NCBI GenBank assembly: GCA_022646745.1
Contig: CP060262.1
Coordinates: forward strand, 4,080,001-4,112,000
Origin: Planctomycetales bacterium
Lineage (GTDB): Bacteria; 4484-113; JAFGCY01
DNA length: 32,000 bases
Direction: 5' to 3'
Shown: in pieces, positions 10,558 through 30,666 of the stretch
Position numbering within the stretch: position 1 is the first letter of the stretch
Layout of the letters: every line of letters starts with the position of its first letter
Program-made: the position numbers and the translations under genes
The notes under the pieces: generated by a model
The model's database searches: none
Told to the model about the DNA's origin: nothing
The model's input: only the letters and a program-made list of their open reading frames with translations

Positions 10558-10920
10558 ATGCCAAGTGTACTGATTGTTGATGACGCGGCCTTCATGAGGA
10601 TGATGATCAAGGACATCCTCAGCAAGAATGGCCTTGAGGTTGCCGGTGAGGCCGAGAACGGCCAGGTTGCCGTCAACAAGTACAAGGAGCTCAAGCCCGA
10701 CCTGGTCACGATGGACATCACGATGCCCGAGATGGACGGCATTGCGGCACTCAAGCAGATCCTGTCCGAGGATGGCAAGGCCAAGGTCGTGATGTGCTCG
10801 GCGATGGGCCAGCAGCAGATGGTGATCGAGGCGATCCAGGCCGGAGCGAAGGACTTCATCGTCAAGCCCTTCAAGCCCGAGCGCGTGATCGAGGCCATCA
10901 CCAAGGTCATCAACAGCTAA
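10558..10920 (+). CDS. cheY: chemotaxis response regulator CheY
   Basis: Single receiver domain of 120 aa: LIVDDAAFMR, DLVTMDITMPEMDG (phospho-Asp), VMCSAMG, and DFIVKPF. GGAGG SD upstream. Confidence 0.9.
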   Translation: MPSVLIVDDAAFMRMMIKDILSKNGLEVAGEAENGQVAVNKYKELKPDLVTMDITMPEMDGIAALKQILSEDGKAKVVMCSAMGQQQMVIEAIQAGAKDFIVKPFKPERVIEAITKVINS

Positions 10921-10980
10921 TTACTTCTGGCAGCAAGAGGCTGCATATATCCGGTTGAGGAACCGGGAAGGCGGAAAGCA

Positions 10981-12375
10981 ATGGGGAGATTGCGTTTCAG
11001 CCCGCGGATGCGGGCAATCCTTGCGGCATGCGTTGCCGCACTGGCACTGGCAACCCTGCCGGGGGCACCTGCACGCGCGGAGGAAAAACCGCAGGCAAGG
11101 GAACCACAACCTGCCAATCTGCAGGATTCCATCCTTGCCGACATCCCTGAGGAACCTGTCAATCCGATGCAGGCGATCAGCGTGATGCTCGGCGGCGGCC
11201 AGCGGCCGGCGATGTCCGGCCTTCTCCCGCTGAGCCTGTTGTCAATGGATACTGATGCCGTGATCGGCACCTCACACTCGCAGTCAAGCGAGCTCGAGCT
11301 GCGCATGGAGCAGCTGCAGCTGGCCCAGCAGCGGGAACGGATCAACGCGCTCAGCACAGCCCTGGCACTCGATGACAACTTCTCAGCCGCTCGTTTCGGC
11401 AACTTCCCTGAGCCGCTGCCGCAGGTCACCGTCGCGCCAGCCATCTGCCAGGCTACCCCCGCAAAGGCCAGCTCCGGCAAGCCTGCTGCCACGAAACCGG
11501 CACAGCCTGGTAACACAAAGCAGCATCCGGTTGCCAATGGCAGTGCCGGTCCCCCTTCGTTCCGCGTTGCAGCAACAAGCGGCGACCCGCACGACCCTGA
11601 GTTCCGCCGCCAGACCATTGAGGAGCTGAACACCCTGCTGGCCAGCCTGCCGGACCCGGCTGAAGCCGGGCTGGAGGGATTGCCCGGCCAGGATGGCAAT
11701 GTCGAAATGACTGACCCGGCAGAAGCGAGCAATGAGGTGGAACCCTACGGCGCGATTGGAATGAGTGACAGTGGCTCGGGCTTCCATGGCATGCTGGACC
11801 TCAGCCATGATGAGCTGGACCAGGCGGAAACTGATGGCTACAGGGAGCCGGGTTCTGCCGTCAGCAGCTTCGGCGTGAAGATGGCGATCTTCACCGTCGG
11901 GATCCTGCTGCTGGCCAGCTTCCTGAAGGGCAAGGGCAACCCGCTGGCGCGGCTCAGCCGCCGCAGCATGAAGGTACTGGAAACAGTCAACCTCGGGCCG
12001 GGCCGCCAGATCATGGTGGTCGAGACCAGTGGCGCGAAGCTGGTGCTTGGTGTGACAGGCGGAGGGATCAACCTGCTTGATCGCATCCCCGATCAGGCCA
12101 GCGGCGAGGCTTATCGTGACAACATGGAGGACATCATCAGCCGTGAATCTCGGGCTGACGAGGACTCCTGGAAACAGCGGCCCGCACTGGACCTGCTGGA
12201 TACCGCCACCCTGCGTGGCAACTCCGGAAGCACCGGAGAAGGACGCAGCATCAGCGTGGCGCAGCTGCGCCAGGCGCGCGCGAGCGCAGTTCCACAGCCA
12301 GCCAGCCGAGTGCCGGACCGCCATGCCGAGCTGCTCAGCCGCGTGCGCACCCAGCTTGAAAGGGTCAGGGGGTAG
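10981..12375 (+). CDS. fliO: FliO/FliZ-domain flagellar export protein, unusually long
   Basis: Signal-like N-terminus (AILAACVAALALATLPGAPARA) followed by a long Pro/Ala/Gln-rich region. A TM helix (MAIFTVGILLLASFL) is followed by the FliO core: MKVLETVNLGPGRQIMVVETSGAKLVLGVTGGGINLL. The position between cheY and fliP also fits. Confidence 0.7.
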   Translation: MGRLRFSPRMRAILAACVAALALATLPGAPARAEEKPQAREPQPANLQDSILADIPEEPVNPMQAISVMLGGGQRPAMSGLLPLSLLSMDTDAVIGTSHSQSSELELRMEQLQLAQQRERINALSTALALDDNFSAARFGNFPEPLPQVTVAPAICQATPAKASSGKPAATKPAQPGNTKQHPVANGSAGPPSFRVAATSGDPHDPEFRRQTIEELNTLLASLPDPAEAGLEGLPGQDGNVEMTDPAEASNEVEPYGAIGMSDSGSGFHGMLDLSHDELDQAETDGYREPGSAVSSFGVKMAIFTVGILLLASFLKGKGNPLARLSRRSMKVLETVNLGPGRQIMVVETSGAKLVLGVTGGGINLLDRIPDQASGEAYRDNMEDIISRESRADEDSWKQRPALDLLDTATLRGNSGSTGEGRSISVAQLRQARASAVPQPASRVPDRHAELLSRVRTQLERVRG

Positions 12376-12378
12376 GCG

Positions 12379-13230
12379 ATGCTGGCAACACTGAAGCTAA
12401 AGCTTGCGATCCTGATCCGCCGCACAGGCACTCCCCTGCTCTGCCTGGCCTGCCTGCTGGCATTGGCGGCCCCTGCCTTCGCGCAGGAGCCGGAGAGCGC
12501 GCCAGCACCTGAGAACGGCCTGAGCGTAAGCGCCGGCGACCTGAATGTGACCGTCAACAGCGGTGATGGCGATGCGGCCAGCATCTTCAAGATCATCGCG
12601 CTGTTCACCCTGATGACGGTGGCCCCGACCCTGATCCTGATGGTGACACCGTTCACGCGTGTGATCATTGTGCTCAGCCTGCTGCGCAATGCGCTTGGCA
12701 CCCAGCAGAGCCCGCCCAACCAGGTGCTGATCGGCCTTGCTGTCGTGATTTCCGCATTCATCATGATGCCGCGCCTGGCGGTGATGAATGACGAGGTGAT
12801 CAAGCCCTACAACGCGGACGAGATTTCACTCGATGAAGCGCTGGCACTGGGCACCTCGCACCTGCAGGAATTCATGTACCCCAATACGCGCACTCCGCAC
12901 AAGCGCCTGTTCGCCCGACTGGCACGTATCGACTCCGATGAAATCCGGCTGGACTCACCGGACAACGTGCATGCCCTGCCGCTGCATGTGCTGCTGCCGG
13001 CCTTCATCATCAGTGAGCTGACAACTGCATTCCAGCTCGGCTTCGTGATCTACCTGCCCTTCCTGGTGGTGGACATGGTGGTGGCCTCGATCCTGATGAG
13101 CATGGGCATGATGATGCTGCCACCGGTGCTGATCTCGCTGCCCTTCAAGCTCTTGATGTTCATCATGGCCAACGGCTGGGCTGCGATCATCGAGGGCCTC
13201 GTCTCCAGCTACTGGGTCAGCCCAGGCTGA
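12379..13230 (+). CDS. fliP: flagellar type III export apparatus protein FliP
   Basis: LFTLMTVAPTLILMVTPFTRVIIVLSLLRNALGTQQSPPNQVLIGLA is the FliP signature. C-terminal PFKLLMFIMANGW is also present. Confidence 0.9.
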   Translation: MLATLKLKLAILIRRTGTPLLCLACLLALAAPAFAQEPESAPAPENGLSVSAGDLNVTVNSGDGDAASIFKIIALFTLMTVAPTLILMVTPFTRVIIVLSLLRNALGTQQSPPNQVLIGLAVVISAFIMMPRLAVMNDEVIKPYNADEISLDEALALGTSHLQEFMYPNTRTPHKRLFARLARIDSDEIRLDSPDNVHALPLHVLLPAFIISELTTAFQLGFVIYLPFLVVDMVVASILMSMGMMMLPPVLISLPFKLLMFIMANGWAAIIEGLVSSYWVSPG

Positions 13231-13577: not shown

Positions 13578-15212
13578 TTACTTGGTGCCGTAGCGTTCCT
13601 CCATCGCCTTGCGGATCCGCTCACTGGCATCCGCCGCACCTTCCACGAACCAGCTGTGTTCGGGGCGGGCCAGCACTTCATCAATCGTCGCATCCACCGC
13701 ATCGGCCGCCGCAGTGTTGCCATCATGGCGGGCCTGTTCAGCCAGCTCGCGGGCCTGCGGAACCAGCTCCATGTAGAAGCGTTCCGCCACCTCATACATG
13801 CCGTGCCAGTGGGTGTAGTCCGGCGCCATCATGCTTGCACCATGGCGGGCGCGGCGGCCCTCATGGTGCCAGAGGTAGAACCATGTCCACTCGATTTCCT
13901 CATCGAACTGAGTCGGGGACACCAGTCCGTTGTCACTGAGGGACTTCATGATCGTCGTACCCGGCTTGGCAAACTTCTCGTTGTAGAGGATCACTAGGTT
14001 GTCATACTGGTCATAGAACTTGTTCACGTAGTCCGGGCTGTGGCAGTGGCTGCACACCAGCTTCATGCGGCTGCGCTTGGCATCCGCGGTATCCGCAATC
14101 TTCTCCTGGCGGGCCTGCGGGTCAGTCTCTGTGACGATCTTGTGGTCGGCATCAGTGTCCATGCGCACGGACACCGGCGGGCGGTTGGTCCAGGAGATGC
14201 GCTCGCCCGGGTCATGCGTGACCTCGCCGCCATTGCGGGAGTTGCCAGACATGTGGCAGGTGGCGCAGGTCGGGGCCGCGGAGTAGTCCACCCCAAGCAC
14301 CCATTTCTCCGCATCCAGGTTCATCTCATCCTTCAGGTCGCGGAAGGCCACGCCATGCTTGCTTTCGTTGTAGATCTCCTCCTGCGGGTGGTCCGGGCCG
14401 AGGTGGCACTTGCCGCAGTTCTCCGGCTGCCGCGCGCGGCGCGGGCTGAAGTCATGGCGGCTGTGGCAGGCGGAGCAGGAACCGCGGGAACCGTCGAGGT
14501 TCAGGCGGCCGATGCCGGTGTTGGGCCAGGTCTGCGGGTCAAGCTCAGGCTTGCCCTTCGGGTCGCGCTTGACCATTGCCAGCACCGTCTGGTCCGTCGG
14601 CATGCCCTTCTCGTCAGGCTTCAGCTGCTCGAAGGTGATGATGCTGCCGTCGGTGCCGACCAGGCCGACCTTGCCGCCGTGGCACTGCTGGCAGCCCGAG
14701 TTGGCACTGGCCATGCCGCGCACGCTGGCAACGTCCATGCCGGGTGTTGGGCTGTGGGGGTTGAACTCCATCCGCGCACCTTCCACCGTCTCAGCGAGGA
14801 AGTTGTCAAGCGAGGCGAGGATGTTCCCGGCGGAGCTGTGGTGGCTCTTCTGGAACTGCTGGCTCTCCTTCGGATGGCACTTCGAGCAGTCCATCGGTGT
14901 GACGACCGTGGCAATCAGCTGGCCATAGTGGTCAAAGGCGTCCGCCTCACCCTGCTTGGCCTCATGGCACTCGTAGCAGGCCACACCCTTCTCGGCATGC
15001 GTGCTGCCCGTCCAGTGCGACACGATGCCGGGGGTCTCCTTGGTGTGGCATTCGACGCACTTGCTGGACGAAGCCGGAGAGGAGATGTGCTTCGGCGCCT
15101 GGCCGGTCTCGACCCGGCGCCGGCTGACCTCCATCGCCTGCACCAGCAGCAGCGACACCAGGAAGATGAATCCCAGCACCGCGATCACGATCTGTTTCAT
15201 GTTCAAAGACAT
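13578..15212 (-). CDS. octahaem c-type cytochrome, hydroxylamine oxidoreductase (HAO) family
   Basis: Eight CxxCH motifs: CVECH, CYECH, CSKCH, CQQCH, CSACH, CGKCH, CATCH, CSHCH. HAO-like C-terminal region: WFYLWHHEGRRARHGASMMAPDYTHWHGMYE. N-terminal signal/anchor: MKQIVIAVLGFIFLVSLLLV. AAGGAG SD favours the ATG at 15212, with 15218 as the alternative. Confidence 0.8.
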   Translation of the reverse strand: MSLNMKQIVIAVLGFIFLVSLLLVQAMEVSRRRVETGQAPKHISSPASSSKCVECHTKETPGIVSHWTGSTHAEKGVACYECHEAKQGEADAFDHYGQLIATVVTPMDCSKCHPKESQQFQKSHHSSAGNILASLDNFLAETVEGARMEFNPHSPTPGMDVASVRGMASANSGCQQCHGGKVGLVGTDGSIITFEQLKPDEKGMPTDQTVLAMVKRDPKGKPELDPQTWPNTGIGRLNLDGSRGSCSACHSRHDFSPRRARQPENCGKCHLGPDHPQEEIYNESKHGVAFRDLKDEMNLDAEKWVLGVDYSAAPTCATCHMSGNSRNGGEVTHDPGERISWTNRPPVSVRMDTDADHKIVTETDPQARQEKIADTADAKRSRMKLVCSHCHSPDYVNKFYDQYDNLVILYNEKFAKPGTTIMKSLSDNGLVSPTQFDEEIEWTWFYLWHHEGRRARHGASMMAPDYTHWHGMYEVAERFYMELVPQARELAEQARHDGNTAAADAVDATIDEVLARPEHSWFVEGAADASERIRKAMEERYGTK

Positions 15213-15231
15213 TGCCATCTCCTTGGCCCGC

Positions 15232-16281
15232 CTAGTGGGCGACGAGCGCTTCCCAGACAGTCAGCCCGACGATTGCCAGTACTGCGAGGATCCCGATGAA
15301 TACGCTGGCTTCACTGCCAGGCCGGCGGCGGCGGATCGCGCCGTCAATCCATGGCCAGGCGAACATCAGGAACACGATTGCCCCGGTCGACATGATCGCC
15401 ACGCGCTCCGGGAACAGCTTCAGCCAGCGGAACACCACGTAGAAGTACCACTCCGGCTTGATCACTTCCGGCGTTGTCAGCGGGTCGGCGCGGTGGCCCA
15501 TCTCCGCCGGCAGCACCGTTGCCAGCACGGTCAGCAGGATCACCAGCGTGGTGCCGATGATGATTTCGGTGTAGAGGTGGTCCGGCAGGAAGTTGAAGGT
15601 CTTCCGCTCCTGCCGCTTTTCCTCCTCGCCCTCCAGCTCGGTCACACCCTGGATGCGGATCAGCACTATGTGCAGCGCGAACACCGCGAGGATCGCCATC
15701 GGCAGCGCCGCGCCGTGCAGGATGAAGAAGCGGCTGAGCGTATGGGAGTTGTAGCTGTCCCCGGCCAGCAGCATCTTCTTCATCACGCCGCCGACCAGCG
15801 GTACGTTGTCAGCGATGTTGGCACCGACGGTTGCCCCCCAGTAGCTGAGCTGCTCATACACCAGGCTGTAGCCTGTGAAGCCGCAGATCACCGTCAGGAA
15901 CAGCAAGAGCATGCCCACCACCCAGCTCATCTCACGCGGCTTGCGGTAGGCCCCGGTGAAGTACACGCGCATCTGGTGCAGCACTACGGCGGCGATCATC
16001 AGGATCGCGCCCCACTTGTGCACACTGCGGATGTACCAGCCGTAGGCCACCTCGTCAGTGATGTAGGCCACGCTGTCCCAGGCATCCGCCGGGCTGGCCT
16101 GGTAGTAAAAGGCCAGCAGGATGCCGGTGAACAGCTGCACGAAGAACAGGTAGGCCGCGGTGCCGCCGAGGCAGAACCACCAGCGTTTCAGGTGGTTCGG
16201 CACGGGTTCGTTCGTCAATTCGCGGATCTGATCCCCGGTGACGGGGATGCGGTCGGTCCACCAGCGCTGCAGTGCATTCAC
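15232..16281 (-). CDS. cytochrome b (fused b6 plus subunit-IV-like) of a Rieske/cyt b complex
   Basis: The GTG at 16281 lies 1 nt after the Rieske stop. The track's longer N-terminal extension overlaps the Rieske gene. Helix B His pair has 13-residue spacing (HKWGAILMIAAVVLH), and helix D pair has 14-residue spacing (HGAALPMAILAVFALH, b6-type). PEWYFY motif in the C-terminal part. Confidence 0.85.
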   Translation of the reverse strand: MNALQRWWTDRIPVTGDQIRELTNEPVPNHLKRWWFCLGGTAAYLFFVQLFTGILLAFYYQASPADAWDSVAYITDEVAYGWYIRSVHKWGAILMIAAVVLHQMRVYFTGAYRKPREMSWVVGMLLLFLTVICGFTGYSLVYEQLSYWGATVGANIADNVPLVGGVMKKMLLAGDSYNSHTLSRFFILHGAALPMAILAVFALHIVLIRIQGVTELEGEEEKRQERKTFNFLPDHLYTEIIIGTTLVILLTVLATVLPAEMGHRADPLTTPEVIKPEWYFYVVFRWLKLFPERVAIMSTGAIVFLMFAWPWIDGAIRRRRPGSEASVFIGILAVLAIVGLTVWEALVAH

Positions 16282-16282
16282 C

Positions 16283-16822
16283 TCAGGCCTCCTGTGAGCC
16301 GCCGCCTGGCAGCTTCTCCATCGGCACGAGGATGTACAGCAGGCCGTCCTCAACCTTGAGCGGGAAGCGCGGCAGGCTCTGTCCGGCCTCCCCGGGAGGG
16401 CCACCGATGCCCTTGCCGCTCGGGTCGAATACGCCGTTGTGGCAGGGGCAGAAGTAGCGGTCGTTGTGTGCTTCCCAGTGCACCTGGCAGCCGAGGTGCG
16501 GGCAGGTGCTGGATAGCGCGATGAAGTCCGTCGCTTCCCCGCTCTCAGCCTGGCGTGTGATGGTCACCTTGTCACCGCGCGGGGCCCGGTAGGCCAGTGA
16601 ATCGCCCTTCAGGAAGCTGGCCACTGCAGCCACGAACTGCCATTCCTGCTCAGCGGGGTTTGCCGGGTAGAGGAATTCGACGGCCATCGAAGCAAAGCGG
16701 CCATAGCCTGCCAGCAATGCCGCCAGCATGGCCAGGCCACTGGCCTGGCGAAGGAATCCCCGCCGTGATCCTTCCTCAGGAACACCTGACGGAACTGATT
16801 GCTCGTCCTCATGGGCTGCCAT
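16283..16822 (-). CDS. Rieske 2Fe-2S subunit with twin-arginine signal
   Basis: Tat motif SRRGFLRQ. Rieske boxes CPHLGC and CPCHNGVF. Confidence 0.9.
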   Translation of the reverse strand: MAAHEDEQSVPSGVPEEGSRRGFLRQASGLAMLAALLAGYGRFASMAVEFLYPANPAEQEWQFVAAVASFLKGDSLAYRAPRGDKVTITRQAESGEATDFIALSSTCPHLGCQVHWEAHNDRYFCPCHNGVFDPSGKGIGGPPGEAGQSLPRFPLKVEDGLLYILVPMEKLPGGGSQEA

Positions 16823-20635: not shown

Positions 20636-20665
20636 AAATGGGACCCCGCGGGGTCCCATTTTTTT
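20636..20665. terminator. bidirectional rho-independent terminator between gdhA and the TPR-TIR gene
   Basis: Perfect 20-nt palindrome TGGGACCCCGCGGGGTCCCA (20639-20658) followed by TTTTTTT on the plus strand and preceded by AAA. It sits between convergent genes, and the minus-strand gene's stop codon lies in the T-run. Confidence 0.8.
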
Positions 20666-22253
20666 ATCCCTCGATCCAGCTCACCAGCTTGTCAATGAAG
20701 GCGTTGAAGAACTCCGTCGTGAATGACATGCCATTCACCTGGCACAGCCCGCGGATGTCCTCAGGCAGGTCCTCAGGCTTCGGCCAGCTGAAGCCGTCCA
20801 TCATCACCGGGATGATATGCACGCCGTGGTGCAGCGCGGTGGCCAGTTCCTGCCTGACAACGTCATCCGGGTCGGAACTGCAGCGCTCGAGGAAATCAGG
20901 GGTCAGCAGCACCAGCATGTGCCGGCTGTAGCGGATCGCCTCCTTCAGGTCCTCGGCGAAATGGCCCTTGTGCAGGCCGTCCTGGTCACGGAATACCGTC
21001 TTGCCGCGGATCTCCATATGGGCCTGCAGCAGCATCGCGTTGGCAAGCGCCGGTTCCCGCCGGTAGCAGATGAACACGTCATATTTCTTCTCGTTGTCAG
21101 GAATCACGCTGACTGCCTCGGGCTGGCTGGCGATCTGATCAGCCACCAGCCTGTCCGGACTGGGTGACATCCAGTCCCTGAGGGTCTCCATTATGAACGG
21201 GGGCTGCTGAATGCCCTGCTTCGTGCAGGTCTCAATGGCCCGGTAGACTTCCTTCAGTGCCTCATCCAGCCTGCCCGCCCCCTGCAGGCAGATCGCCCGG
21301 CCGAAGTACAGCATCCATTCCTCTTCATCACCGCCTTCCCTGATGGTTTCCTCGGCCAGTTCGTAATAGTGCAGGGATTCCTCGATCCTGCCCAGCCTGC
21401 CCAGTGCATCTGCCATACCGATCATAGCCGAGGAAGCCAGTTGACCACTCTGTTCACGGTGCAGGCGCATAGCCTCCTGGAAAAGCTCAAGGGACTGCTG
21501 GGGCCTGCCCATCTTCAGGAGAATCGCGCCCCGGTTTCCGACTAGTGCGGCTGGAAGCGGCCGCTGCATCTCATCAAATATCTCTTCTACCCGGTCCAGC
21601 ACTGCCAATGCATCCTCGTACCGCCCGATCTGCACAAGCAGGTAGGCCCGCAGGTTCATCAGCGCCATCAGCGGCTGCTCATCCTGCTCAATTGCCAGCT
21701 TCTCAGCGCGGTCGAGCCAGTGCAGGGCCTTGTCAACCTGTAACCTGTCGGAATAGAGCTGTGCCCTGAAGCCAGATACCCCCTGTGAAAGGGGCTTTCC
21801 CTGCGCCATGCACAGCTCATCTGCCCTGTCCAGGCTGGCCAGGGCGTCGTCATACGAGATCAGGTGCCTCTGGATGGTTGCCAGCATCAACTCCAGCTTG
21901 GGATCCACAGGCATGCCCTGGTCCAGGAAGGCCCGGCGCGCCAGTTCAACTTGCTGCTGGCCCTCGGCGTAATGGTGCAAGCTGATCAGGCAGCCGCCAA
22001 TTCGCATCAGGATCCGCGGATCCTCCGGTTTTCCCTGCTGCTTGAGGATCTCAATGGCCTGCTGGGCGGCGCTCAGCGCTTCTTCGTAGCGCATCAACAT
22101 GAACAGCAGGTCAGACTTGCGGTCCAGCAGTTCCGGATCAGCTGGCTGCCCAGCCGCCTCCAGTCTCTGTTCCTCGCTGAGAAGCTGCTCCAGTTGCTGG
22201 ACAGGAGTGAGTGAGTTCTCCACCCAGCAATTATTGCATTGGCATTGCAGCAC
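20664..22253 (-). CDS. TPR-repeat (about eight 41-42-aa repeats) protein with C-terminal TIR domain
   Basis: The C-terminal ~141 aa (nt ~20667-21089) is TIR-like: KKYDVFICYRRE...TVFRDQD...HMLVLLTPDFLERCSSDPDDVVRQELATAL. The N-terminal ~370 aa has a ~41-aa periodicity: RYEEAL / HYAEGQ / SYDDAL / QVDKAL / RYEDAL / RPQQSL / RIEESL / RLDEAL. GTG start at 22253, with alternative GTG at 22223. No NTPase, TM or signal sequence. Confidence 0.8.
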   Translation of the reverse strand: MLQCQCNNCWVENSLTPVQQLEQLLSEEQRLEAAGQPADPELLDRKSDLLFMLMRYEEALSAAQQAIEILKQQGKPEDPRILMRIGGCLISLHHYAEGQQQVELARRAFLDQGMPVDPKLELMLATIQRHLISYDDALASLDRADELCMAQGKPLSQGVSGFRAQLYSDRLQVDKALHWLDRAEKLAIEQDEQPLMALMNLRAYLLVQIGRYEDALAVLDRVEEIFDEMQRPLPAALVGNRGAILLKMGRPQQSLELFQEAMRLHREQSGQLASSAMIGMADALGRLGRIEESLHYYELAEETIREGGDEEEWMLYFGRAICLQGAGRLDEALKEVYRAIETCTKQGIQQPPFIMETLRDWMSPSPDRLVADQIASQPEAVSVIPDNEKKYDVFICYRREPALANAMLLQAHMEIRGKTVFRDQDGLHKGHFAEDLKEAIRYSRHMLVLLTPDFLERCSSDPDDVVRQELATALHHGVHIIPVMMDGFSWPKPEDLPEDIRGLCQVNGMSFTTEFFNAFIDKLVSWIEG

Positions 22254-22274: not shown

Positions 22275-23411
22275 ATGGGATGGATCAGGGACAGCATCCG
22301 GGATTACGTCGAGCTATACCGGCCATTGCGCCGCAGCTTCATCGGCTGGCGCAGCCCGCTTGTGTTGTGGCCTGGCATTTTCGTTTTCGCGCTGGCAATC
22401 ACGAGTGCAATCCTGCAGCAGCAGGTTGATCCAAACCAACTCAGTTGGAACCAGGGCTTCCTGCAATTCCTGATTATTGAACTGACCCCGCCGCTGATCA
22501 TGCTTTGCATGATCACTGCCTGGTTCAATATCGCCCTTGCAAACAGCCACAATGCCCAGACCCTGCTGGAACCCGCGCTGATGGGTGGCAACAGGGTAAG
22601 TGGATGGTTCCGTTTCCTGCTGGGCCTGCACAGTGGTCTGGTTCCGCTGCTTGTTGCCGTATGTGGACTGGCAATCGTGCACCTGTCTGAAAAGCCTCCA
22701 TACTGGGGTTTTCGCATTGTCGATGTCGTCGACAACTTCGGATACCTCCTTTGCTGCGTTGCCTGGACCGCGATCTGCCTCGCCGTTTACTGTGTGACAG
22801 CCAGCCGGCGATTCACATTCTTCCTGTTCGCTCTGTTTGCCATAGAGCTTGTCTTCCGTGTATTCCTTGCCAGCAGCAATTTCCCGCGCTACTGGGACTC
22901 GTTTGGCCTGTCCGGCCAGCGGCTGGATGGCTATTACTACGTCCTGCTGGTTCTGGCCCTGCTCCTGCCCCTGTCAGTGATGCTCGGCCACTTGTTCAAA
23001 CGGGACACCATGCTGATGCTCAGCACCGCCTTCCTGTCCCTGGTTCGTTTGGTGCATATCGCACTGCTCAGCATCGGGTTTGCCGACCCAGCCGTGTACG
23101 GCGGTGGGATCTATACGGCGCTGTATGAGTTTGCCAACGATGACACAACCGGCGACCTGATCGAAGGCGTCTGGATCCTGAACGGCAGCATCTCTGACTC
23201 ACTCTTCAGCCTGGAATTTACTGACAATTACATGATGCGTTCACTGATTGGCGATCCATATCTCGTATTCATGCACCAGCTTCGCCTGTTTTCCGGCAGC
23301 CCGCTTGCCATGGCGGCCCTGGCCCTGCTCGGAAACCTGGCCTGGCTGTTCCTCGTCTGCGTCGTCTGCCTGTATTGTGTACGCAGGCATGAAAGGGAGA
23401 TGGTGAGCTGA
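22275..23411 (+). CDS. paralog 1 of a six-member polytopic membrane protein family (unknown family)
   Basis: The ATG at 22275 gives MGWIRDSIRDYVELYRPLRRSFIGWR, aligned with the paralog 2 N-terminus. The track's TTG at 22239 would overlap the divergent TIR gene. About 8 hydrophobic segments. C-terminal helix LGNLAWLFLVCVVCLYCVRRHERE. Confidence 0.7.
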   Translation: MGWIRDSIRDYVELYRPLRRSFIGWRSPLVLWPGIFVFALAITSAILQQQVDPNQLSWNQGFLQFLIIELTPPLIMLCMITAWFNIALANSHNAQTLLEPALMGGNRVSGWFRFLLGLHSGLVPLLVAVCGLAIVHLSEKPPYWGFRIVDVVDNFGYLLCCVAWTAICLAVYCVTASRRFTFFLFALFAIELVFRVFLASSNFPRYWDSFGLSGQRLDGYYYVLLVLALLLPLSVMLGHLFKRDTMLMLSTAFLSLVRLVHIALLSIGFADPAVYGGGIYTALYEFANDDTTGDLIEGVWILNGSISDSLFSLEFTDNYMMRSLIGDPYLVFMHQLRLFSGSPLAMAALALLGNLAWLFLVCVVCLYCVRRHEREMVS

Positions 23412-23412
23412 G

Positions 23413-24597
23413 ATGGCTGCTTCAACCTCGATCATTTCCGAGTACCAGGAGTTCTACTCCCCGATCCAGCGCAACTTCGCCGGCTGGCGGCGCGGCGCGC
23501 TGCCCGTCATCATCGCCCTGCTCTGCCTGCTGGCACTGTGTGCGCTGCTGTTCATGGCCGGCTGGTGGCTGCCCGGGCCCACCCAGAACCTTGCGGAGCT
23601 GTTCCGTGACATCGGCGAATTCTGCCGTGCACTGCTCCTGCCCGCCGCCTTGACCGGCTGGGTGGTGCTGGCGCTTGCCAACCTGCGCATCGCTGACAGC
23701 CTGCTGGATGAGGCCCTGCTCGGCCGGCGCGGCAGCAGCGCATCCTTCCGCTTCATCCTGACCTTGCACTCCGGTCTCTGGCCCGTGCTCGTCGGCGCAA
23801 CGCTGCTGGCAACGGTGCTCGCCGCCCAGTCGTTCCAGGCCGCGAATGCCACCGAGCCCAGCTGGCTCGGGCCGTCCTACAACTGGGACTCGATGATGGA
23901 GCATGTGCGCGGCGAACTGCTGGTCAGGCTTGGCAACTTGCCGGGGGAGCTGGCGATGTACTGCGGCTTCACTGCGATCGCACTCGCGCTGGCCTGCATG
24001 GCGCGGCGCAGCTCGACGGTCTGGTTGGTGTTCTGCCTGCTCAACCTGCAGCTGCTGCTGGACATCCTCGCGGCCTTCCTCAATGTCAACGTCTATGCGC
24101 TGTATTGGCAGGACACGATGTACAGCACCCGCCCGCTGCTGTTCCTGCTGATGCTGGCCGGGGCTGCATTGGTCTACGGCCTGCCGCTGATCGCCCTGAA
24201 GGCTTCCGACCGGCCTCTGCTGTACGCATTCGCCTGGCTGTCCATCATGCGCACCGCTGACCTGTTCCTCGCGCTCAGTCGCAACGGCTTCGTGGCTTCC
24301 GTGCAGTATGACGACTCACGCATGCCGCTTTTGAACTTCAGCTGGCATGCCAACCTCGCGATGAAGTACCCGCTTTTCAGCTGCCTGCCGGAGAACTTCA
24401 ACCGGATCTACGGCTTCGGGCGCGGGATCTTCGAGGACCGCTACATGCTGATGTTCATGGACCAGGTGCGCGAGGGCCTGCCCTGCGGCAGCTGGGGGAT
24501 CGCAGTGGCCTGGCTTGGCAACCTGGCCTGGCTGGCAGCAGTGCTCGCGGTCTGCCTGTACAGCGTGCGCCGCTTCGAGAAGGAACAGATCACCTGA
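23413..24597 (+). CDS. paralog 2 of the membrane protein family
   Basis: The ATG lies 1 nt after the paralog 1 stop. Motifs: SEYQEFYSPIQRNFAGWRR; ALANLRIADSLLDEALLGRRGSSASFRFILTLHSGLWP (compare paralog 1 ALANSHNAQTLLEPALMGGNRVSGWFRFLLGLHSGLVP); C-terminal LGNLAWLAAVLAVCLYSVRRFEKE. Confidence 0.75.
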   Translation: MAASTSIISEYQEFYSPIQRNFAGWRRGALPVIIALLCLLALCALLFMAGWWLPGPTQNLAELFRDIGEFCRALLLPAALTGWVVLALANLRIADSLLDEALLGRRGSSASFRFILTLHSGLWPVLVGATLLATVLAAQSFQAANATEPSWLGPSYNWDSMMEHVRGELLVRLGNLPGELAMYCGFTAIALALACMARRSSTVWLVFCLLNLQLLLDILAAFLNVNVYALYWQDTMYSTRPLLFLLMLAGAALVYGLPLIALKASDRPLLYAFAWLSIMRTADLFLALSRNGFVASVQYDDSRMPLLNFSWHANLAMKYPLFSCLPENFNRIYGFGRGIFEDRYMLMFMDQVREGLPCGSWGIAVAWLGNLAWLAAVLAVCLYSVRRFEKEQIT

Positions 24598-25718
24598 TGG
24601 CGACGCTGGCTGACAAGCTGCACGGACCAAGGCAATCTGCCATCCCGCTGGACAGTGTGATGAAGCGCTGGTGGCGTAGGCGCGGACTGCTGTGGCTATT
24701 GGCGATGCTCTTGCCGGCGATGGTCTATGCCATTGCGATTACCGACCAGGTATTCAGTGCTGCGCCATCGCGGATCTCCCAGTGGATCATTTTCTGGGCT
24801 TATAACCGGCTGGTCACCACGGGTATTGTGGTGCTTTTGCTGGCATTCCTGGCGGCGATCTGGCATGAGTTCGGCATCATGCGCCGGATGGCGCGGGAAG
24901 CGGCAGCCCCGGATCCCGGCTTGGGCAGCAGGGAGTTCTTCGTGCGCAGCATGAGGCACCTGCCCTGGCTAGCAGCGGGCTTTGTACTCACCCGCCTGGT
25001 TATCATGCTGCCATTCCTGTTTGAGTCTAACTATCATGCGTGGTTTTCCGGCATAGGCAAATTCAGTTACATCCCGGACCTGGTTGAGCACAGTGTCCGA
25101 GACCTGTACCTTGCCTTGTTCCTCAGCGTGGCAGCAGCAGCCCTGTACTGTTACCGTGGCATGGCCAGGCACCTGCTTGTGCTGGCATATCCGGCTTGCA
25201 AGATGCTCGTGTGGCCATTCAAGATTTCGCCAAACACCTGGTACTGCGGCAGTGAAGGTATTCCAGTTTCTGAATTGATCATGGCCTGGCTGACAGCCGC
25301 CATCACTCTCGCCGGCATCTATCACCTGCTAGTCTCATACTCAGCAACTGTCAGCAGCCCGGCACCGACACGGATCAGGAATCGCTACAGAGCCATTCCG
25401 GTAATGGCAACCCTGTTCATCCTGTCCTTCCAGGCCGTGAATGAACTGCTGCCCGACACAGTTAATACGCAGGACATTGGCTTCTGGATGAGCGAATCAC
25501 TATTTTCTTGCCCAACATATCTGTTAATCGCAACTGGCAACCACGGTGATGTGATGGAAGCGGCATTGACCCTCAGTTTCGGCTGGGGTCCTGTCGTTCA
25601 TGCGGGCTGGTACTGTGTCCCGTTGGCAATCCTGATCAATTTGTCAGTAGTGGCCATGCTGTGGTTCGCAGCATTTCTGGCCCTGCCGGCACCTGAAGGA
25701 GACCAGGCACGGGCATGA
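24597..25718 (+). CDS. paralog 3 (most divergent) of the membrane protein family
   Basis: TGATG overlap with paralog 2. Motifs: MKRWWRRRGLLWLLA and the loop RRMAREAAAPDPGLGSREFF. The C-terminal helix is diverged (ILINLSVVAMLWFAAFLALP). The second half is visibly less GC-rich. Confidence 0.65.
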   Translation: MATLADKLHGPRQSAIPLDSVMKRWWRRRGLLWLLAMLLPAMVYAIAITDQVFSAAPSRISQWIIFWAYNRLVTTGIVVLLLAFLAAIWHEFGIMRRMAREAAAPDPGLGSREFFVRSMRHLPWLAAGFVLTRLVIMLPFLFESNYHAWFSGIGKFSYIPDLVEHSVRDLYLALFLSVAAAALYCYRGMARHLLVLAYPACKMLVWPFKISPNTWYCGSEGIPVSELIMAWLTAAITLAGIYHLLVSYSATVSSPAPTRIRNRYRAIPVMATLFILSFQAVNELLPDTVNTQDIGFWMSESLFSCPTYLLIATGNHGDVMEAALTLSFGWGPVVHAGWYCVPLAILINLSVVAMLWFAAFLALPAPEGDQARA

Positions 25719-26821
25719 GCACGATCAAATCACAGCTCGCCGACTACCGCGAACTGGACGCCCCGCTTAAGCGCAGCATGCGCCGCTGGTGGAAGGGTAC
25801 GGGACGGCTGTGGCTGGTCGCTATCGGCGCGTGTGGTTTCCTGTCAATCGCCAGCATTTTCCTCGTCCGTCAGTTGATCACCGGCAATTCCAGCCTGACA
25901 ATGTTCTTCCTGTCAGTCGGGGCCTTTGCCAGTTATTGCCTGCCCGCATTGACCCTTGTCGCCTGCTTCCATACCATGGCCAGCCGCTGCCGCCAGCTGC
26001 GCCAGCTCAGCGATGAAGCAGCCCTGCCTGAGAGTGCAGCAATCTGGCAGAGCTGGCTCGTCGGCTCGCTCGCTTCCTGCTGGCCACTGCTGGCAGCCCA
26101 GACTTTGACAATCCTGCTGCGTGACAGCTTCCTCCAGATGTTCATCAATACCCAGCTGTCCCGCAAGGCGGACCTGCTGCGCATAATCACCGGCGGCCTG
26201 GACGAGGGATTGCTGCTGGTCTTCATGGCCCTGCTGGCAGGCACATGGCTGCACACCGGACGGCGCTCACGGCTGGATTACCTGTTCCTGGCCTGCCTCT
26301 GTGCCGCCTCAATCGCATCCGCGATCGGAGTGCTGTTCTGGCGGATAGGACAACTCGGTGGCGGCGGTTACTTTGAGGACCTCGACCCCGTGAACCTGGC
26401 AACCGGCAGCATCCTGGCAATCGCAGTGCCAGCCTGGGTGCTGCTTTCAAGGAAGTCCGGCCCCCGTCCGCAGTTCACAATGTCGGTGTTTGCAACGATC
26501 CGGCTACTGGAACTGTTTGCGATGTTCACCGCTGGTTCGGCCAGCATCATCTGGGCCAGGCTGCTGATGCTGGAGGAGATCCTGACTGGCTGGCAGGCGG
26601 TGTTCACGCGGATGCCGTTCGGCTACGGTGAACACACATTCCACTACTTCGACCATTCCGAGGGCGGCACAGCGCTCTTCCTGTTCTGGCAATCAGGACT
26701 GGCTGTCAGGACCGGTCCGATCGGCTACATGCTGGCCCTGCTGCTCAACCTCGCCTGGCTGGCGATCGTGTTCCTGTTCTGCCGCTGGGCGGTGGGCCGG
26801 AGTGCGGTGCGGGAGGAGTGA
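25715..26821 (+). CDS. paralog 4 of the membrane protein family
   Basis: ATGA overlap with paralog 3. Motifs: ADYRELDAPLKRSMRRWWKGTGRLWLVA, the loop LRQLSDEAALPESAAIW, and C-terminal LLNLAWLAIVFLFCRWAVGRSAVREE. Confidence 0.75.
   Translation: MSTIKSQLADYRELDAPLKRSMRRWWKGTGRLWLVAIGACGFLSIASIFLVRQLITGNSSLTMFFLSVGAFASYCLPALTLVACFHTMASRCRQLRQLSDEAALPESAAIWQSWLVGSLASCWPLLAAQTLTILLRDSFLQMFINTQLSRKADLLRIITGGLDEGLLLVFMALLAGTWLHTGRRSRLDYLFLACLCAASIASAIGVLFWRIGQLGGGGYFEDLDPVNLATGSILAIAVPAWVLLSRKSGPRPQFTMSVFATIRLLELFAMFTAGSASIIWARLLMLEEILTGWQAVFTRMPFGYGEHTFHYFDHSEGGTALFLFWQSGLAVRTGPIGYMLALLLNLAWLAIVFLFCRWAVGRSAVREE
26744..26800 (+). repeat. conserved 3'-terminal nucleotide block of paralog 4
   Basis: CTCAACCTCGCCTGGCTGGCGATCGTGTTCCTGTTCTGCCGCTGGGCgGTGGGCCGG matches 28946-29002 at 56 of 57 nt. 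Confidence 0.9.
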
Positions 26822-26823
26822 AG

Positions 26824-27915
26824 GTGTGTAGTTCTGAATCAACCAGAAAAGTGCTGAGTTCAATTAACAGAGCCACTCACGCTCATATGGCTTTGTGGTG
26901 GCAAAGATACGGAATTTACTGGATTACTGCAATTTTGGTCATCTGGTTTATCGATACCGCCTCCTACCAGCTTGCAGGACGCGGTCATGTATATCCTGAC
27001 TTGTCTTCGCTAACCTACGATATTTGGCCATTTACGAGGCTTCTGAAGGGGGTTATTCCTGTTGTTGCCTTCGTCGCTGCTTCCTCTCACAAGTTGAAAC
27101 TGCTTGAGGATCACATCCTAAACGATGGGATTCCCACCAGCTTTGATGTCAGAAGGCACTCGTTCAGTATTGTCGTGTATGCCGGCATTCCAATACTGTT
27201 GGTTGTCCTTGCGGCAGGATCCATCTCTTGGGCTTACGTCAAAGGCAGATTGACTGGCATGTCGTTTCCTGACTGGTACTACGCGATCTGCTTATCAATA
27301 GAGCAGGTTTCTGCCTCTGCCCTCATTTCGCTGATTGCAGTTGCCATTATGTGCATGACCCGTTCTAAGTCTAGTCTGGCAGCAATTCTCTTTATCATGA
27401 TGTTGCACCACCTGAATGAACCATTCGTGAGACTGTCAGATTCCAGAGGAACTTACCTCTACAGAATGGAGGACGCTGCCGGACTGTCTCCGTTCCTTTT
27501 TACAGTGGGCAGTGTTAGTGCAATCGTCCTGCTGGCAGTTTTCCTGTTGACGATATCATCCCCAAACTTTAGGCTGAGTACTACGCCACTGGTTGCCATA
27601 TGCATCATCCGCGGTCTCGAAACCTATTTTGGTTACAGATCGCTTTCGAACCTTGATATGGTTGTTCCCGACATTGCATTCATGGCAATACTGCGCGGAT
27701 TCCAGCTGGTGTTCGTAACCGGACCGATGAATGTCGATGTAACTCTCTTTCCTGTTCCGGATGAGATTCTCGCCCACCCACCATGGAATCCCTACACGTT
27801 TGAGGGAACAGAATGGAATTATCTTTATGCAGTTATTGGCAATCTGGCCTGGGTTGCCTGTGTGTTCCTCTTCTGCCGCTGGGCGGTGGGCCGCAGTGCG
27901 GGACGGGAGGCATAG
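26824..27915 (+). CDS. paralog 5 of the membrane protein family, with AT-rich body
   Basis: GTG at 26824, 7 nt after GGAGG in GGGAGGAG. An alternative GTG at 26818 overlaps the paralog 4 stop. Motifs: HMALWWQRYGIYWITA, the loop LEDHILNDGIPTSFDVRR, and C-terminal IGNLAWVACVFLFCRWAVGRSAGREA. Confidence 0.7.
   Translation: MCSSESTRKVLSSINRATHAHMALWWQRYGIYWITAILVIWFIDTASYQLAGRGHVYPDLSSLTYDIWPFTRLLKGVIPVVAFVAASSHKLKLLEDHILNDGIPTSFDVRRHSFSIVVYAGIPILLVVLAAGSISWAYVKGRLTGMSFPDWYYAICLSIEQVSASALISLIAVAIMCMTRSKSSLAAILFIMMLHHLNEPFVRLSDSRGTYLYRMEDAAGLSPFLFTVGSVSAIVLLAVFLLTISSPNFRLSTTPLVAICIIRGLETYFGYRSLSNLDMVVPDIAFMAILRGFQLVFVTGPMNVDVTLFPVPDEILAHPPWNPYTFEGTEWNYLYAVIGNLAWVACVFLFCRWAVGRSAGREA
27862..27901 (+). 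repeat. conserved 3'-terminal nucleotide block of paralog 5
   Basis: GTGTTCCTcTTCTGCCGCTGGGCGGTGGGCCGcAGTGCGG differs at 2 of 40 nt from 26768-26807, even though the rest of the gene is strongly diverged and AT-rich. Confidence 0.85.
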
Positions 27916-27919
27916 CTGG

Positions 27920-29026
27920 ATGAGAGGCATATGGCAGACGCAACTTGTTGAGTACCGCGAGTTTGCTGCACCGCTGAATCACCATTTCCGCCGCTGGTGG
28001 ACCGGTCCGGGCCGTGCCTGGCTGTATGCCCTGATCGGCGTGCAGGCGGCGGCAATTGTCAGTCTCTGGCAGGCCTGGGCATTCAATACCGCCAGCCGGT
28101 CCGCCACATTGTTCTTCGCATCCTTCATTGCCAGCTCACTGGCACAGCTGTTCACGGTCGTGCTGGCTTATCTGTCCGGCCTGGCATTCCAGTCCAGCAT
28201 GAAGGAAATGGCACGGGATGCCGTGCTGCCAGCCGGTTCCGCCGTTGCCAGGCTGATGTTCTTCGGAGCACTGGTCTGCGCTTCCCCTCCGTTTTACTGC
28301 CACCTGCTTTACCTGACCATTCTGCAGATGATCCGCGCCAGTTACACTTCAAGCTTCCTCGGGAACTCCATCTCGCCGGGCGAGATCCTGCAGTCCCTGT
28401 TGTACGAAATCCTGCCCATGCTTGTGATCATCTGCTGCAGCCTGGCTGCCAATGTTCATGCAAGGGGCCGCAGGCGCTCACTGGCAATCATGGCTGTATA
28501 TGTCGCGATCACCACCGCCAGCTGGCTGGTGCTCGTGTTCAGGCTGCCAATGCCGTTTGCCAACATGGATTCCTATTCCAGCTTTGCGCTGTTTCCCTTC
28601 ATCGGGGTCTGCTTCGCCCTTGCCCTGATTGCCACGCTTGTGCAGGAGTCCGCGGACCGGTCTCCCGCATCCAGGGCAGCCACTCCGGCCCTGCTGCTGC
28701 TCTGTTTGCTTACCCTGTTCCTGATGGTCGTGCGGCAGGAATCCGTTGTCAGCAGGCCGGCCGGGCTCATCATCAGTGAAATCAGCTATGGATTCTTTGC
28801 GAGCATTACTTCAGCGCCCTTCCACTTCAGGCCAGCAGCGGACGCCACATTCTCATTCTCCGACAGCATAAGCGGCCTTGCACTTGGCTGGATACCCAAT
28901 ACATATTTTCCCGTGACGGCATTCGGTGATGCCCTGGCCAGCATGCTCAACCTCGCCTGGCTGGCGATCGTGTTCCTGTTCTGCCGCTGGGCTGTGGGCC
29001 GGATCAGCTGGCGGGAGGAGGAATGA
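27920..29026 (+). CDS. paralog 6 of the membrane protein family
   Basis: ATG at 27920, 4 nt after the paralog 5 stop and 9 nt after GGGAGG. The track's 27761 start overlaps paralog 5. Motifs: VEYREFAAPLNHHFRRWWTGPGRAWLYA, the loop MKEMARDAVLPAGSAVARL, and C-terminal MLNLAWLAIVFLFCRWAVGRISWREEE. Confidence 0.75.
   Translation: MRGIWQTQLVEYREFAAPLNHHFRRWWTGPGRAWLYALIGVQAAAIVSLWQAWAFNTASRSATLFFASFIASSLAQLFTVVLAYLSGLAFQSSMKEMARDAVLPAGSAVARLMFFGALVCASPPFYCHLLYLTILQMIRASYTSSFLGNSISPGEILQSLLYEILPMLVIICCSLAANVHARGRRRSLAIMAVYVAITTASWLVLVFRLPMPFANMDSYSSFALFPFIGVCFALALIATLVQESADRSPASRAATPALLLLCLLTLFLMVVRQESVVSRPAGLIISEISYGFFASITSAPFHFRPAADATFSFSDSISGLALGWIPNTYFPVTAFGDALASMLNLAWLAIVFLFCRWAVGRISWREEE
28946..29002 (+). 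repeat. conserved 3'-terminal nucleotide block of paralog 6
   Basis: Matches 26744-26800 at 56 of 57 nt. Confidence 0.9.
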
Positions 29027-29028
29027 GC

Positions 29029-29078
29029 GGAGGCCAAGCTGTAAGCTTGGCAAGTGCCAGGCAAACTGCCTGGCCTCC
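29029..29078. repeat. 50-nt REP-like double-hairpin element (copy C)
   Basis: GGAGG-CCAAGCT-gta-AGCTTGG-CAAGT-GCCAGGCA-aac-TGCCTGGC-CTCC. Begins 3 nt after the paralog 6 stop. Confidence 0.75.
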
Positions 29079-29083
29079 GGTGT

Positions 29084-29125
29084 GTAGCTCTAAGAGCTAC
29101 AGGGCCATGTTGCTCCAAGAGCAAC
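29084..29125. repeat. two further triloop hairpins
   Basis: GTAGCTC-taa-GAGCTAC (29084-29100) and GTTGCTC-caa-GAGCAAC (29109-29125). Each has a 7-bp stem and a 3-nt loop. Confidence 0.7.
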
Positions 29126-29518
29126 ACTCCGACTCACTGGCCGCCGGACATCCCGGGTGGGGGGATCGCACCGCAGGTGTGATCGCCACCGGGCGGGGAT
29201 GGCGATCCGGCCGGCGGCTGGGGAGGAGATCAGATCACGGTTGCAGGTGGCAGCAGTCCAATGGCGTGGGTGTCGTCGCAGATTGTTCCACTATTCGCAT
29301 TATTCAGACTATTCTGATTACTCCCGCAAGCGGATGGCTGTCGCCATCCTGGCAAGGCACGGTGGCCTTACCCTACTACCGCTTAAGAAGGTAGCTCCCG
29401 TCCCCCATCCCACTTAGCATTCCATTGTGCGCAAGCAAGTTGCGCACCTCCAGCATTCCTGTTCACTGATCACTGTTCACTGTTAAACTGATAAACGGGC
29501 TGGGAGGCCCGCAAAGTC

Positions 29519-29893
29519 ATGGAAGAACTGCGTAACAACATGATCAACCTGATGCAGAACCCGACGCATATGGGCGAGATGGACGAGCCCACCGGGATCG
29601 GGCATGTGCAAAGCGAATGTGGCGACTGGGTGCGCATGCAGGTGCGGCTCGCCAGTGACAACACCATCGAGCAGACGAAGTTCATTGCCTACGGCTGCGG
29701 CAGCGCGATCGCTTCCGCCGAAGCCATCGCCCGCATGAGCGAGGGCCGCAGCATCGACGATGCTGAACAGATGACCCAGGAAGAGGTGATCATCGCGCTT
29801 GGCGGCCTGCCGGAGCACAAGTCCCACTGCAACGCGATGAGCCACATGTCCTTCATGGAGGCGCTCAAGTCCTGCCGGGAGCATGCCGGCTGA
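29519..29893 (+). CDS. IscU/NifU-N-terminal-domain-like Fe-S cluster scaffold protein
   Basis: All three scaffold cysteines are in the expected contexts: SECGDWVR, AYGCGSAIASAEA, HKSHCNAM. The 124-aa length fits. Confidence 0.75.
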   Translation: MEELRNNMINLMQNPTHMGEMDEPTGIGHVQSECGDWVRMQVRLASDNTIEQTKFIAYGCGSAIASAEAIARMSEGRSIDDAEQMTQEEVIIALGGLPEHKSHCNAMSHMSFMEALKSCREHAG

Positions 29894-30666
29894 TGGAGTA
29901 CTGGGAGGACTACGAGGTCATCGAGATCGAGACGCCGGAGCTGTTGAAGCTGCACCTCCCGCTGGCCGGTTTCGGCCCGCGTGCCCTCGCTTTCATCGTG
30001 GACAGCCTGATCATCGCCGTGGTCCAGCTCGTGCTGGGCGGCCTGCTTTTGATGGTCGGGATCGGCACGCTGGGCAGCGCGGGAGCCTCCGGCAACACCG
30101 GACTGGTGATCGCCTTCGTGCTGATCGCGATCCTGCTGCTCATACTGCTCTACCCGGCCTACCACATCATATTTGAGTCGATCTGGAACGGCCAGACCCC
30201 TGGCAAGCGCATGACCGGCATCCGCGTCGTGCGCCGCGGTGGCCTGCCGCTGACCCCTCAGTCGATCTGGATGCGCAACCTGATGCGCCTGGTTGACATG
30301 CTGCCCAGCAACCAGTTCACCGGGCTCGTGAGCTTCTTCGTGTCGGCCAGCCAGCAGCGCGTCGGGGACCTGGTGGCGGACACCGTCGTGGTGCGCGAGT
30401 TCCAGCAGCAGCAGCCCGTCAGCTGGGTGCGCAGCTATGGCGGCAACCCGGCGCTGGACACGCCGGAGATCGGCACGGTCACCCCTCGCATCGCACTCGC
30501 GATCAACAGCTACCTGATGCGCGCGGTGAACTTCGAGCCGGAGCTGCGGCATAACCTGAGCGGCCGGCTGGTGCGTGCGCTGGGCTACAACGCGGATACG
30601 CTCAGCCTCGGGCAGCGCGACTCCTACCTCGCATCGGTGCTGGCCCAGTACCACAGCCGCGGCTGA
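29893..30666 (+). CDS. RDD family membrane protein
   Basis: TGATG overlap with the upstream gene. Motifs: GPRALAFIVDSLIIAVVQLVL, GQTPGKRMTGIRVVRRGG, and RNLMRLVDML...GDLVADTVVV. Confidence 0.75.
   Translation: MEYWEDYEVIEIETPELLKLHLPLAGFGPRALAFIVDSLIIAVVQLVLGGLLLMVGIGTLGSAGASGNTGLVIAFVLIAILLLILLYPAYHIIFESIWNGQTPGKRMTGIRVVRRGGLPLTPQSIWMRNLMRLVDMLPSNQFTGLVSFFVSASQQRVGDLVADTVVVREFQQQQPVSWVRSYGGNPALDTPEIGTVTPRIALAINSYLMRAVNFEPELRHNLSGRLVRALGYNADTLSLGQRDSYLASVLAQYHSRG

Follow-up and report, generated by a model that had tools for sequence, protein, structure and literature searches.

Six consecutive genes for polytopic membrane proteins, here called M1 to M6, occupy positions 22275 to 29026 of a 32,000-nt stretch of DNA (the window; positions 4,080,001 to 4,112,000 of contig CP060262.1, assembly GCA_022646745.1). 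The genome is a closed metagenome-assembled genome (MAG) under the label 'Planctomycetales bacterium', related genomes carry the label UBP7, and the lineage is uncultured and known from wastewater. We consider it very probable that the locus is a recombining, strain-variable cassette array, a property missed by an earlier reading of this DNA from its letters alone (the original prediction). The six proteins have been deposited as hypothetical proteins H7A35_16570-16595 (UNM08441–UNM08446) of a 4,112,261-bp contig, and sequence comparison shows them to be true paralogs within a single family. Structural models suggest that this is an undescribed family of inner-membrane proteins with eight transmembrane (TM) helices, possibly representing a new fold.

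Cassette Turnover between Strains

The evidence for turnover comes from the same locus in a sister strain (L001) that is ~95% identical to the window. The flanks of the array share 94–99% DNA identity between the two strains, and the encoded neighbors share 98% (a TIR-domain protein upstream of the array), 100% (NifU) and 99% (RDD) amino acid identity. Within the array the similarity is broken twice (variable segments 1 and 2, table 1), and the breakpoints are located in conserved 5′ and 3′ gene ends. In the sister strain, the body of M1 gives way to that of a gene with 36% protein identity, and the single gene that stands in for the second segment is 33% identical to M4.

Synonymous-codon identity at the gene ends is far above that of the bodies, indicating that the ends share recent DNA ancestry beyond what protein constraint would maintain. 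Where M1 and its replacement have the same residue, the codon is also the same at 29 of 32 positions within the N-terminal 35 codons and at 24 of 25 within the C-terminal 35 codons, compared with 44 of 94 in the body (Fisher p 8e-6 and 3e-6, respectively). The same pattern is seen within the genome for M4 to M6, in which 23 of 25 identical residues share a codon at the C-terminal end as opposed to 24 of 68 in the bodies (Fisher p 9e-7). Copies of a direct repeat, D1, are listed with the genes in table 1.

One MAG assembly carries both variants of the array, and the locus thus marks strain heterogeneity: a 643-nt contig with 3x coverage (L004) is 100% identical to the M4/M5 junction of the window and comes from the same assembly as a 17x contig with four array genes (L006). 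Short contigs from at least eight wastewater samples repeat the order M2-M3-M4-M5-M6, and such contigs (L017–L024) tend to break inside the array.

The copies retained in both strains appear to be working genes because they are under purifying selection, with a ratio of nonsynonymous to synonymous substitution rates (dN/dS) of 0.10 for M2 (96% amino acid identity) and 0.16 for M6 (97%). In view of these ratios and the intact open reading frames (ORFs), the idea that the array consists of pseudogenized duplicates was rejected.

Organization of the Array

The six ORFs abut or overlap on one strand (table 1). The tight packing of paralogous genes in the original prediction is borne out by the coordinates, by the junctions and by leave-one-out family hidden Markov models, which recognize each of M1 to M6 at E ≤ 1e-21. 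Read directly, the junctions match those listed earlier, being TGA-G-ATG between M1 and M2, TGATG between M2 and M3, ATGA between M3 and M4, GGGAGGAGTGAAGGTG between M4 and M5, and TAG-CTGG-ATG between M5 and M6. Purine runs resembling Shine–Dalgarno sequences lie ahead of most starts. The sole ambiguous start is that of M5, which could be GTG 26818, overlapping the M4 stop, or GTG 26824; the second lies 5 nt past GGGAGGAG and is the one chosen by gene callers on other contigs, giving a protein of 363 aa.

M5 is also atypical in composition, with a GC content of 50% and a third-codon-position GC content (GC3) of 0.53, against 0.88 in M2 and 0.8–0.9 in neighboring genes. This suggests that some cassettes were imported, and on composition M5 is possibly one that was acquired horizontally.

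A promoter and terminator scan within the array gave counts near the shuffle expectation and is uninformative on transcription units. Rfam and tRNA scans of the window produced no match, and a six-frame search of the window revealed no extra or degraded copies of the family. Between M6 and the following nifU-like gene is a 490-nt noncoding gap (29027–29518) with several short palindromes and no Rfam match, and the sister strain has conserved it.

Table 1. Genes of the array, its divergent neighbor, strain-variable segments and copies of repeat D1 (positions within the window)
Feature	Position	Strand	Description
TPR + TIR_2 protein gene	20664–22253	-	529 aa; divergent to M1, 21 nt from M1
M1	22275–23411	+	378 aa from ATG; M1-type; frame likewise open from upstream TTG 22239
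M2	23413–24597	+	394 aa; M2-type
M3	24597–25718	+	373 aa; M3-type outlier, clusters with P0015
M4	25715–26821	+	368 aa; M4-type
M5	26818–27915 (or 26824–27915)	+	365 aa (or 363 aa)
M6	27920–29026	+	368 aa; M6-type
Variable segment 1	22373–23348	+	M1 body; no DNA similarity to sister strain; flanks 98.9% and 93.4% identical
Variable segment 2	24617–27839	+	M3, M4 and most of M5; one 365-aa gene (P0001) in sister strain
Direct repeat D1	26732–26801	+	70 nt; 3′ end of M4; encodes last TM helix
D1 copy	28934–29003	+	3′ end of M6; 93% identical to M4 copy
Other D1 copies	23319–23388, 24505–24574, 27826–27895	+	

Family Membership

In all-against-all BLASTP comparisons, M1 matches M2 (E 7e-26) and M4 matches both M6 (E 1e-28) and M5 (E 2e-11), whereas M3 matches M4 over the N-terminus only (E 7e-6). 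The subgroups proposed at the outset, with M3 as an outlier, hold. When 1.84 billion representative proteins were searched exhaustively by HMMER with a six-protein profile, only 28 proteins matched at E ≤ 1e-3. A word-indexed search of 5.8 billion clusters with three queries returned one, four and six proteins, all of them unannotated or named 'hypothetical protein'. Family alignments are accordingly shallow (27–28 sequences).

By all membership tests run (Pfam, NCBIfam, PADLOC, PHROGs, PDB and BFVD) the family lies, as far as sequence and model comparison can place it, outside every described kind, in accord with the initial impression that it resembled no recognizable family. Pfam and NCBIfam scans of M1 to M6 at E ≤ 1 identified no family bar two chance fragments, PADLOC and PHROGs scans of the same proteins gave no match, and PDB sequence-profile searches with the six-protein and then the 27-member profile found only chance fragments of G protein-coupled receptors (GPCRs). 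When 27 members were scanned singly against Pfam at E ≤ 10, 14 families were hit, each by one member and without recurrence. Neither of two specific candidate families fits: for CPBP (PF02517), which is characterized by EExxxR and FxxxH motifs, there is no Pfam match and the 27-sequence alignment lacks an invariant E or H, and Wzy_C was matched weakly by just one of the 27 members (E 0.008), while the neighbors of the array are gdh, nifU, RDD, TPR and folD and not genes of glycan synthesis.

Iterated homologue searches for a bridge to an annotated family, begun from the whole family and from its distant clade, recovered only members without Pfam domains. Searches of plasmid and phage collections by tblastn found no match, and a first scan of Joint Genome Institute (JGI) metagenomes with the C-terminal motif found no relatives. 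In structure comparisons, Foldseek reported no match at E ≤ 0.001 for the M4 and M2 models against the PDB or for one model against BFVD, and the background was mostly GPCRs at a probability of 0.1–0.4. A remote tie to ABC-2 (ATP-binding cassette) permeases or to some domain of unknown function is possible.

Predicted Architecture and Conservation

AlphaFold2 models of M4, built from the family alignment (predicted local distance difference test score, pLDDT, 88.4; predicted template-modelling score, pTM, 0.89), and of M2, a distant paralog modelled independently (pLDDT 79.9, pTM 0.83), have the same plan, in which an N-terminal helix (residues 4–27 of M4) is followed by eight TM helices. TM2 is long in the models, reaching into the cytoplasm with a short loop back to TM3, and a helix and three-stranded sheet are placed on the periplasmic side between TM7 and TM8. 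The loop preceding the last helix, predicted to form this helix and sheet, averages 59 aa. Hydropathy, the two models and the positive-inside rule over 27 sequences all back eight TM helices, which agrees with the count of about eight originally made by eye. Across these sequences, lysine and arginine together number 12.9 per 80 residues in predicted cytoplasmic segments (0.16) versus 4.9 per 94 in periplasmic segments (0.05), and this excess places both termini in the cytoplasm. Comparison of the N-terminal and C-terminal halves with hhalign detected no internal repeat.

The N-terminal helix is amphipathic and basic, with a hydrophobic moment of 0.5–0.76 and the motif [DE]Y.EL..P..R.MRRWW. 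A cytoplasmic helical hairpin between TM2 and TM3 bears a conserved L.DEAA.P tip, and the last TM helix has the conserved pattern NLAWLA..FLFCRWAVGR. These three shared motifs, already picked out in the first reading of the six genes, are the most conserved parts of the 27-sequence alignment. Column conservation is higher in cytoplasmic (0.40) than in TM segments (0.37) and lowest in periplasmic ones (0.26), with peaks in the N-terminal helix (0.48), the last TM helix (0.49) and the C-terminal tail (0.45). The individual periplasmic segments (0.24–0.27) also house the length variation and indels. Only a Trp of the RWW motif and a Pro in TM3, which has a G-W-P kink, are near invariant. The alignment contains no conserved acidic, His, Ser or Lys residue suggesting catalysis and no invariant polar residue of the enzyme kind; the first reading had likewise seen no catalytic motif.

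Distribution and Synteny

A motif scan covering one genome per GTDB species identified five loci, in two UBP7-labelled MAGs, a 'Planctomycetales' MAG and 'bacterium AC1.30', and on these searches the family is restricted to few lineages, all of them uncultured bacteria. At all five loci the family genes occupy the same spot of a conserved block, in which Rieske-cytochrome b, an AMIN protein, a 273–281-aa ORF and gdh precede the array and nifU-like, RDD, TPR and folD genes follow it. The number of family genes at this gdh–nifU site is six in the window, four in the sister strain (L001 and L006 are identical in sequence), two in L003, two in L005 and one in L007. Neighboring proteins are 70–95% identical to those of the window (GDH 94%, cytochrome b 88%, NifU 87–90%, RDD 72–74%). 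Array members are 25–46% identical between those genomes, the closest member in L003 and L005 being 37–46% identical, and in the single gene of L007 conservation is confined to the ends, the body being 28% identical to M4. The nifU-like (IscU-type) and RDD-family membrane protein genes (29519–30666, plus strand) abut one another, with stop and start adjacent at 29893, and this pair comes after the array in every related genome.

The neighbor-joining tree contains old paralog types (M1-, M2-, M3-, M4- and M6-type) common to several genomes. An M4-type gene is present in every related array, the two genes of L005 are of M2-type and M4-type, and an M6-type gene is the final one before nifU in the window and in L011. 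A distant clade (P0018–P0032) is always single-copy, and its members have unrelated neighbors; those seen were a tRNA synthetase with a glyoxalase in one setting and peptidase M42 with DUF1579 in another. The original prediction stated beforehand that homologues occurring singly among unrelated neighbors would speak against a conserved array; the distant clade has exactly this arrangement. Nor is the TIR gene a conserved partner, since L003, L005 and L007 all lack it at the corresponding position.

The product of the TIR gene has weak similarity to the TIR domains of defense proteins. The block containing it is 98.9% identical between strains, with a synonymous divergence (dS) of 0.02 compared with 0.08–0.24 for the array and downstream genes. 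This low divergence, and the absence of the gene from the three related loci, indicate a recent lineage-specific insertion and not a conserved partner, and suggest a recent insertion or sweep into the gdh–nifU gap. Between the convergent gdh and TIR genes is a GC-rich hairpin, AAATGGGACCCCGCGGGGTCCCATTT (20636–20661), with an 11-bp stem and a T-run, which looks like a bidirectional terminator.

Functional Interpretation

As a functional model, to which we give somewhat less than an even chance as a whole, we propose that the array supplies a recombining set of cassettes, each encoding a membrane module that works independently of the others, with the cytoplasmic face common to all. Each paralog would be autonomous, probably as a homo-oligomer, and would act in the manner of a permease or a receptor. 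In all copies, the conserved cytoplasmic face and last helix would serve one purpose, either docking of a shared partner encoded elsewhere or oligomerization, and the diversified periplasm-facing body would give each copy a distinct specificity. Outside diversifying pressure from phage, membrane-acting toxins or changing substrates would keep many old alleles in the population, and copies would be gained, lost and swapped between near-identical strains via the conserved gene ends.

Some known systems resemble this model in part. The S-components of group II energy-coupling factor (ECF) transporters are divergent small membrane paralogs with their own specificities that dock a shared, remotely encoded energizing module via a conserved motif. 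They offer a working analogy only, in the form of divergent membrane paralogs sharing one partner module: S-components are proteins of about 190 aa with about 6 TM helices, their genes are scattered and not in tandem, exchange of cassettes among strains is not known for them, and negative Pfam and PDB searches give no sequence or fold match to the array proteins. Cassette behavior is unusual in an array of polytopic inner-membrane proteins. Wzx and Wzy of O-antigen and capsule loci are hypervariable polytopic cassettes between conserved flanks, with alleles too divergent to align. Unlike those loci, the array has no glycosyltransferase or sugar-nucleotide genes, and its copies are mutually homologous and in tandem.

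Several points weigh against the model. No gene that would point to a partner is conserved beside family members across both clades. Retained orthologues differ at few positions, by conservative changes that are not enriched in periplasmic loops, which leaves cassette turnover as the sole basis for inferring diversifying selection. Instead of docking, the conserved face could be needed for membrane insertion, folding or oligomerization, and the rapid divergence could come partly from weak constraint on hydrophobic helices. The models themselves were built on the shallow alignment noted above. A bolder version, in which a new fold underlies a hypervariable cassette system of interchangeable inner-membrane modules for immunity to, or recognition of, phages, membrane-acting toxins or kin, seems to us rather unlikely. 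Such a system would be the membrane-protein counterpart of the cassette loci of restriction specificity subunits or surface antigens, of a kind not described so far for polytopic inner-membrane proteins.

It is also conceivable, and in our judgment unlikely, that M1 to M6 are extremely divergent ABC-2 (type V) exporter permeases that work with a shared ATPase encoded elsewhere in the 4.1-Mb genome. The N-terminal helix (as interface helix) and the TM2–TM3 loop (as coupling helix) would then dock the ATPase, and the array would provide alternative permeases. Like the array proteins, the ABC-2/type V permeases NosY, PmtD, Wzm and TarG are polytopic with a cytoplasmic N-terminus, have an amphipathic helix before TM1 and a conserved cytoplasmic element after TM2, and lack catalytic residues; they too are very poorly conserved in sequence. 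ABC-2 permeases also often occur as duplicated pairs of paralogs. The two conserved cytoplasmic elements of the array proteins correspond in position to the interface and coupling helices of type V transporters as described for TarG (PMC11971408). The highest Foldseek probabilities for M4 also belong to ABC-2 proteins, NosY (7o0y_D; probability 0.94, TM-score per target 0.43) and PmtD (6xjh_A; 0.87, 0.38), with the type VI protein LptG following (0.47, 0.33), and NosY recurs for M2 (probability 0.47, TM-score 0.37).

However, these ABC-2 leads all have E-values above 0.1 and TM-scores of 0.28–0.44, every one below 0.45. None of the 27 members matches the ABC2_membrane Pfam models, even at E ≤ 10. 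With hhalign, the family aligned to a nine-sequence YadH-type ABC-2 profile with a probability of 0.5% and to YadH alone with about 0.5%, no better than the unrelated membrane proteins used as controls (cytochrome b, RDD, FliP and DUF4126). The type V fold combines an interface helix, six TM helices, a coupling helix after TM2 and re-entrant external helices; the models have eight TM helices instead of six and a periplasmic insert of helix and sheet. As the original prediction stated, no plausible ORF in the window encodes an ABC ATPase, and none encodes another candidate soluble partner. An ATPase gene adjoins no family member in the window or at 12 other distinct loci (13 with the window), a check that took in L001/L006, L003, L005, L007, L008, L009, L010, L011, L014, L015 and L016; in comparison, four of five ABC-2 control loci with records annotated there have an adjacent ATPase gene. 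The likeness to ABC-2 permeases, correctly described as weak from the start, may serve as a lead on mode of working and not on membership.

A second alternative is that the array is an immunity or exclusion repertoire, in which each paralog neutralizes a single toxin that acts on membranes, be it a bacteriocin or the effector of a polymorphic toxin, or blocks one phage at the inner membrane, and strains collect different sets. Strain-variable content, swapping of cassettes for very old alleles, varying copy number, conserved recombining ends around variable bodies and the high variability of periplasm-facing parts are all in keeping with this, as is the foreign-looking composition of M5. The gdh–nifU gap itself has the look of a hot spot at which accessory or conflict genes insert, because the lineage-specific TIR gene was inserted there. 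Bacteriocin and polymorphic-toxin immunity-gene arrays of the CPBP/Abi type resemble the locus in being strain-variable tandem sets of divergent paralogs that recombine via conserved ends. They differ in having toxin or secretion genes nearby and matches to CPBP or another immunity family; no toxin, secretion or phage gene occurs in the 32 kb or at related loci, and no match was found in PADLOC, PHROGs, BFVD or the plasmid and phage collections. To our knowledge, polytopic immunity proteins are smaller or carry the CPBP motifs, for which Pfam matches are absent here. In addition, relatives hold one copy at a fixed housekeeping site and the distant clade one copy in ordinary neighborhoods, suggesting a core cellular role for the ancestral protein. 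On balance, we find an immunity repertoire improbable.

That M1 to M6 are subunits of one obligate hetero-oligomeric membrane complex, an idea raised in the original prediction, is very unlikely. The operon-like packing with overlapping stops and starts would fit such a complex, and so would the retention of old, distinct paralog types across genomes, as in the pairing of L005. A fixed complex is difficult to reconcile with 6, 4, 2, 2 and 1 copies at the same syntenic site, with a ~95%-identical strain that has four genes, lacks M3 and M5 and carries 36%- and 33%-identical genes in place of M1 and M4, or with the single-copy distant clade. Finally, a role for the array as the membrane effector arm of a TIR-based defense system, for which the closely spaced divergent TIR gene and its defense-like domain might speak, is extremely improbable and was rejected: the gene is not conserved with the array, has a separate, recent history by its much lower dS, and stands beside proteins without a PADLOC match to any known anti-phage system, Thoeris included.

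If a recombining repertoire of membrane modules is the correct reading, the locus would add a membrane-protein family, and possibly a fold, that lies outside profile libraries and solved structures. It would be a clear natural case of cassette-style diversification acting on an inner-membrane protein between strains otherwise about 95% identical, and would open a way into the strain-level biology of conflict or specificity in a wastewater lineage that is uncultured. Even if the genes encode no more than an orphan permease-like family, which is the minimal reading, the locus usefully marks strain heterogeneity and explains the assembly breaks found there.

Other Features of the Window

Near the start of the window are three consecutive ORFs of high GC3 (662–3112, minus strand; 242, 254 and 314 aa) without a Pfam match. 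A flagellar cluster on the plus strand (8421–13230) comprises fliM, a fliN-like gene, a 464-aa ORF and fliP; the 464-aa ORF has a short FliO match only and is unusually long for FliO. On the minus strand (13578–16822), genes for a Rieske protein, a cytochrome b and a multi-haem cytochrome c of 546 aa follow one another and are conserved in related MAGs, in what looks like a fused or unusual bc-type complex.

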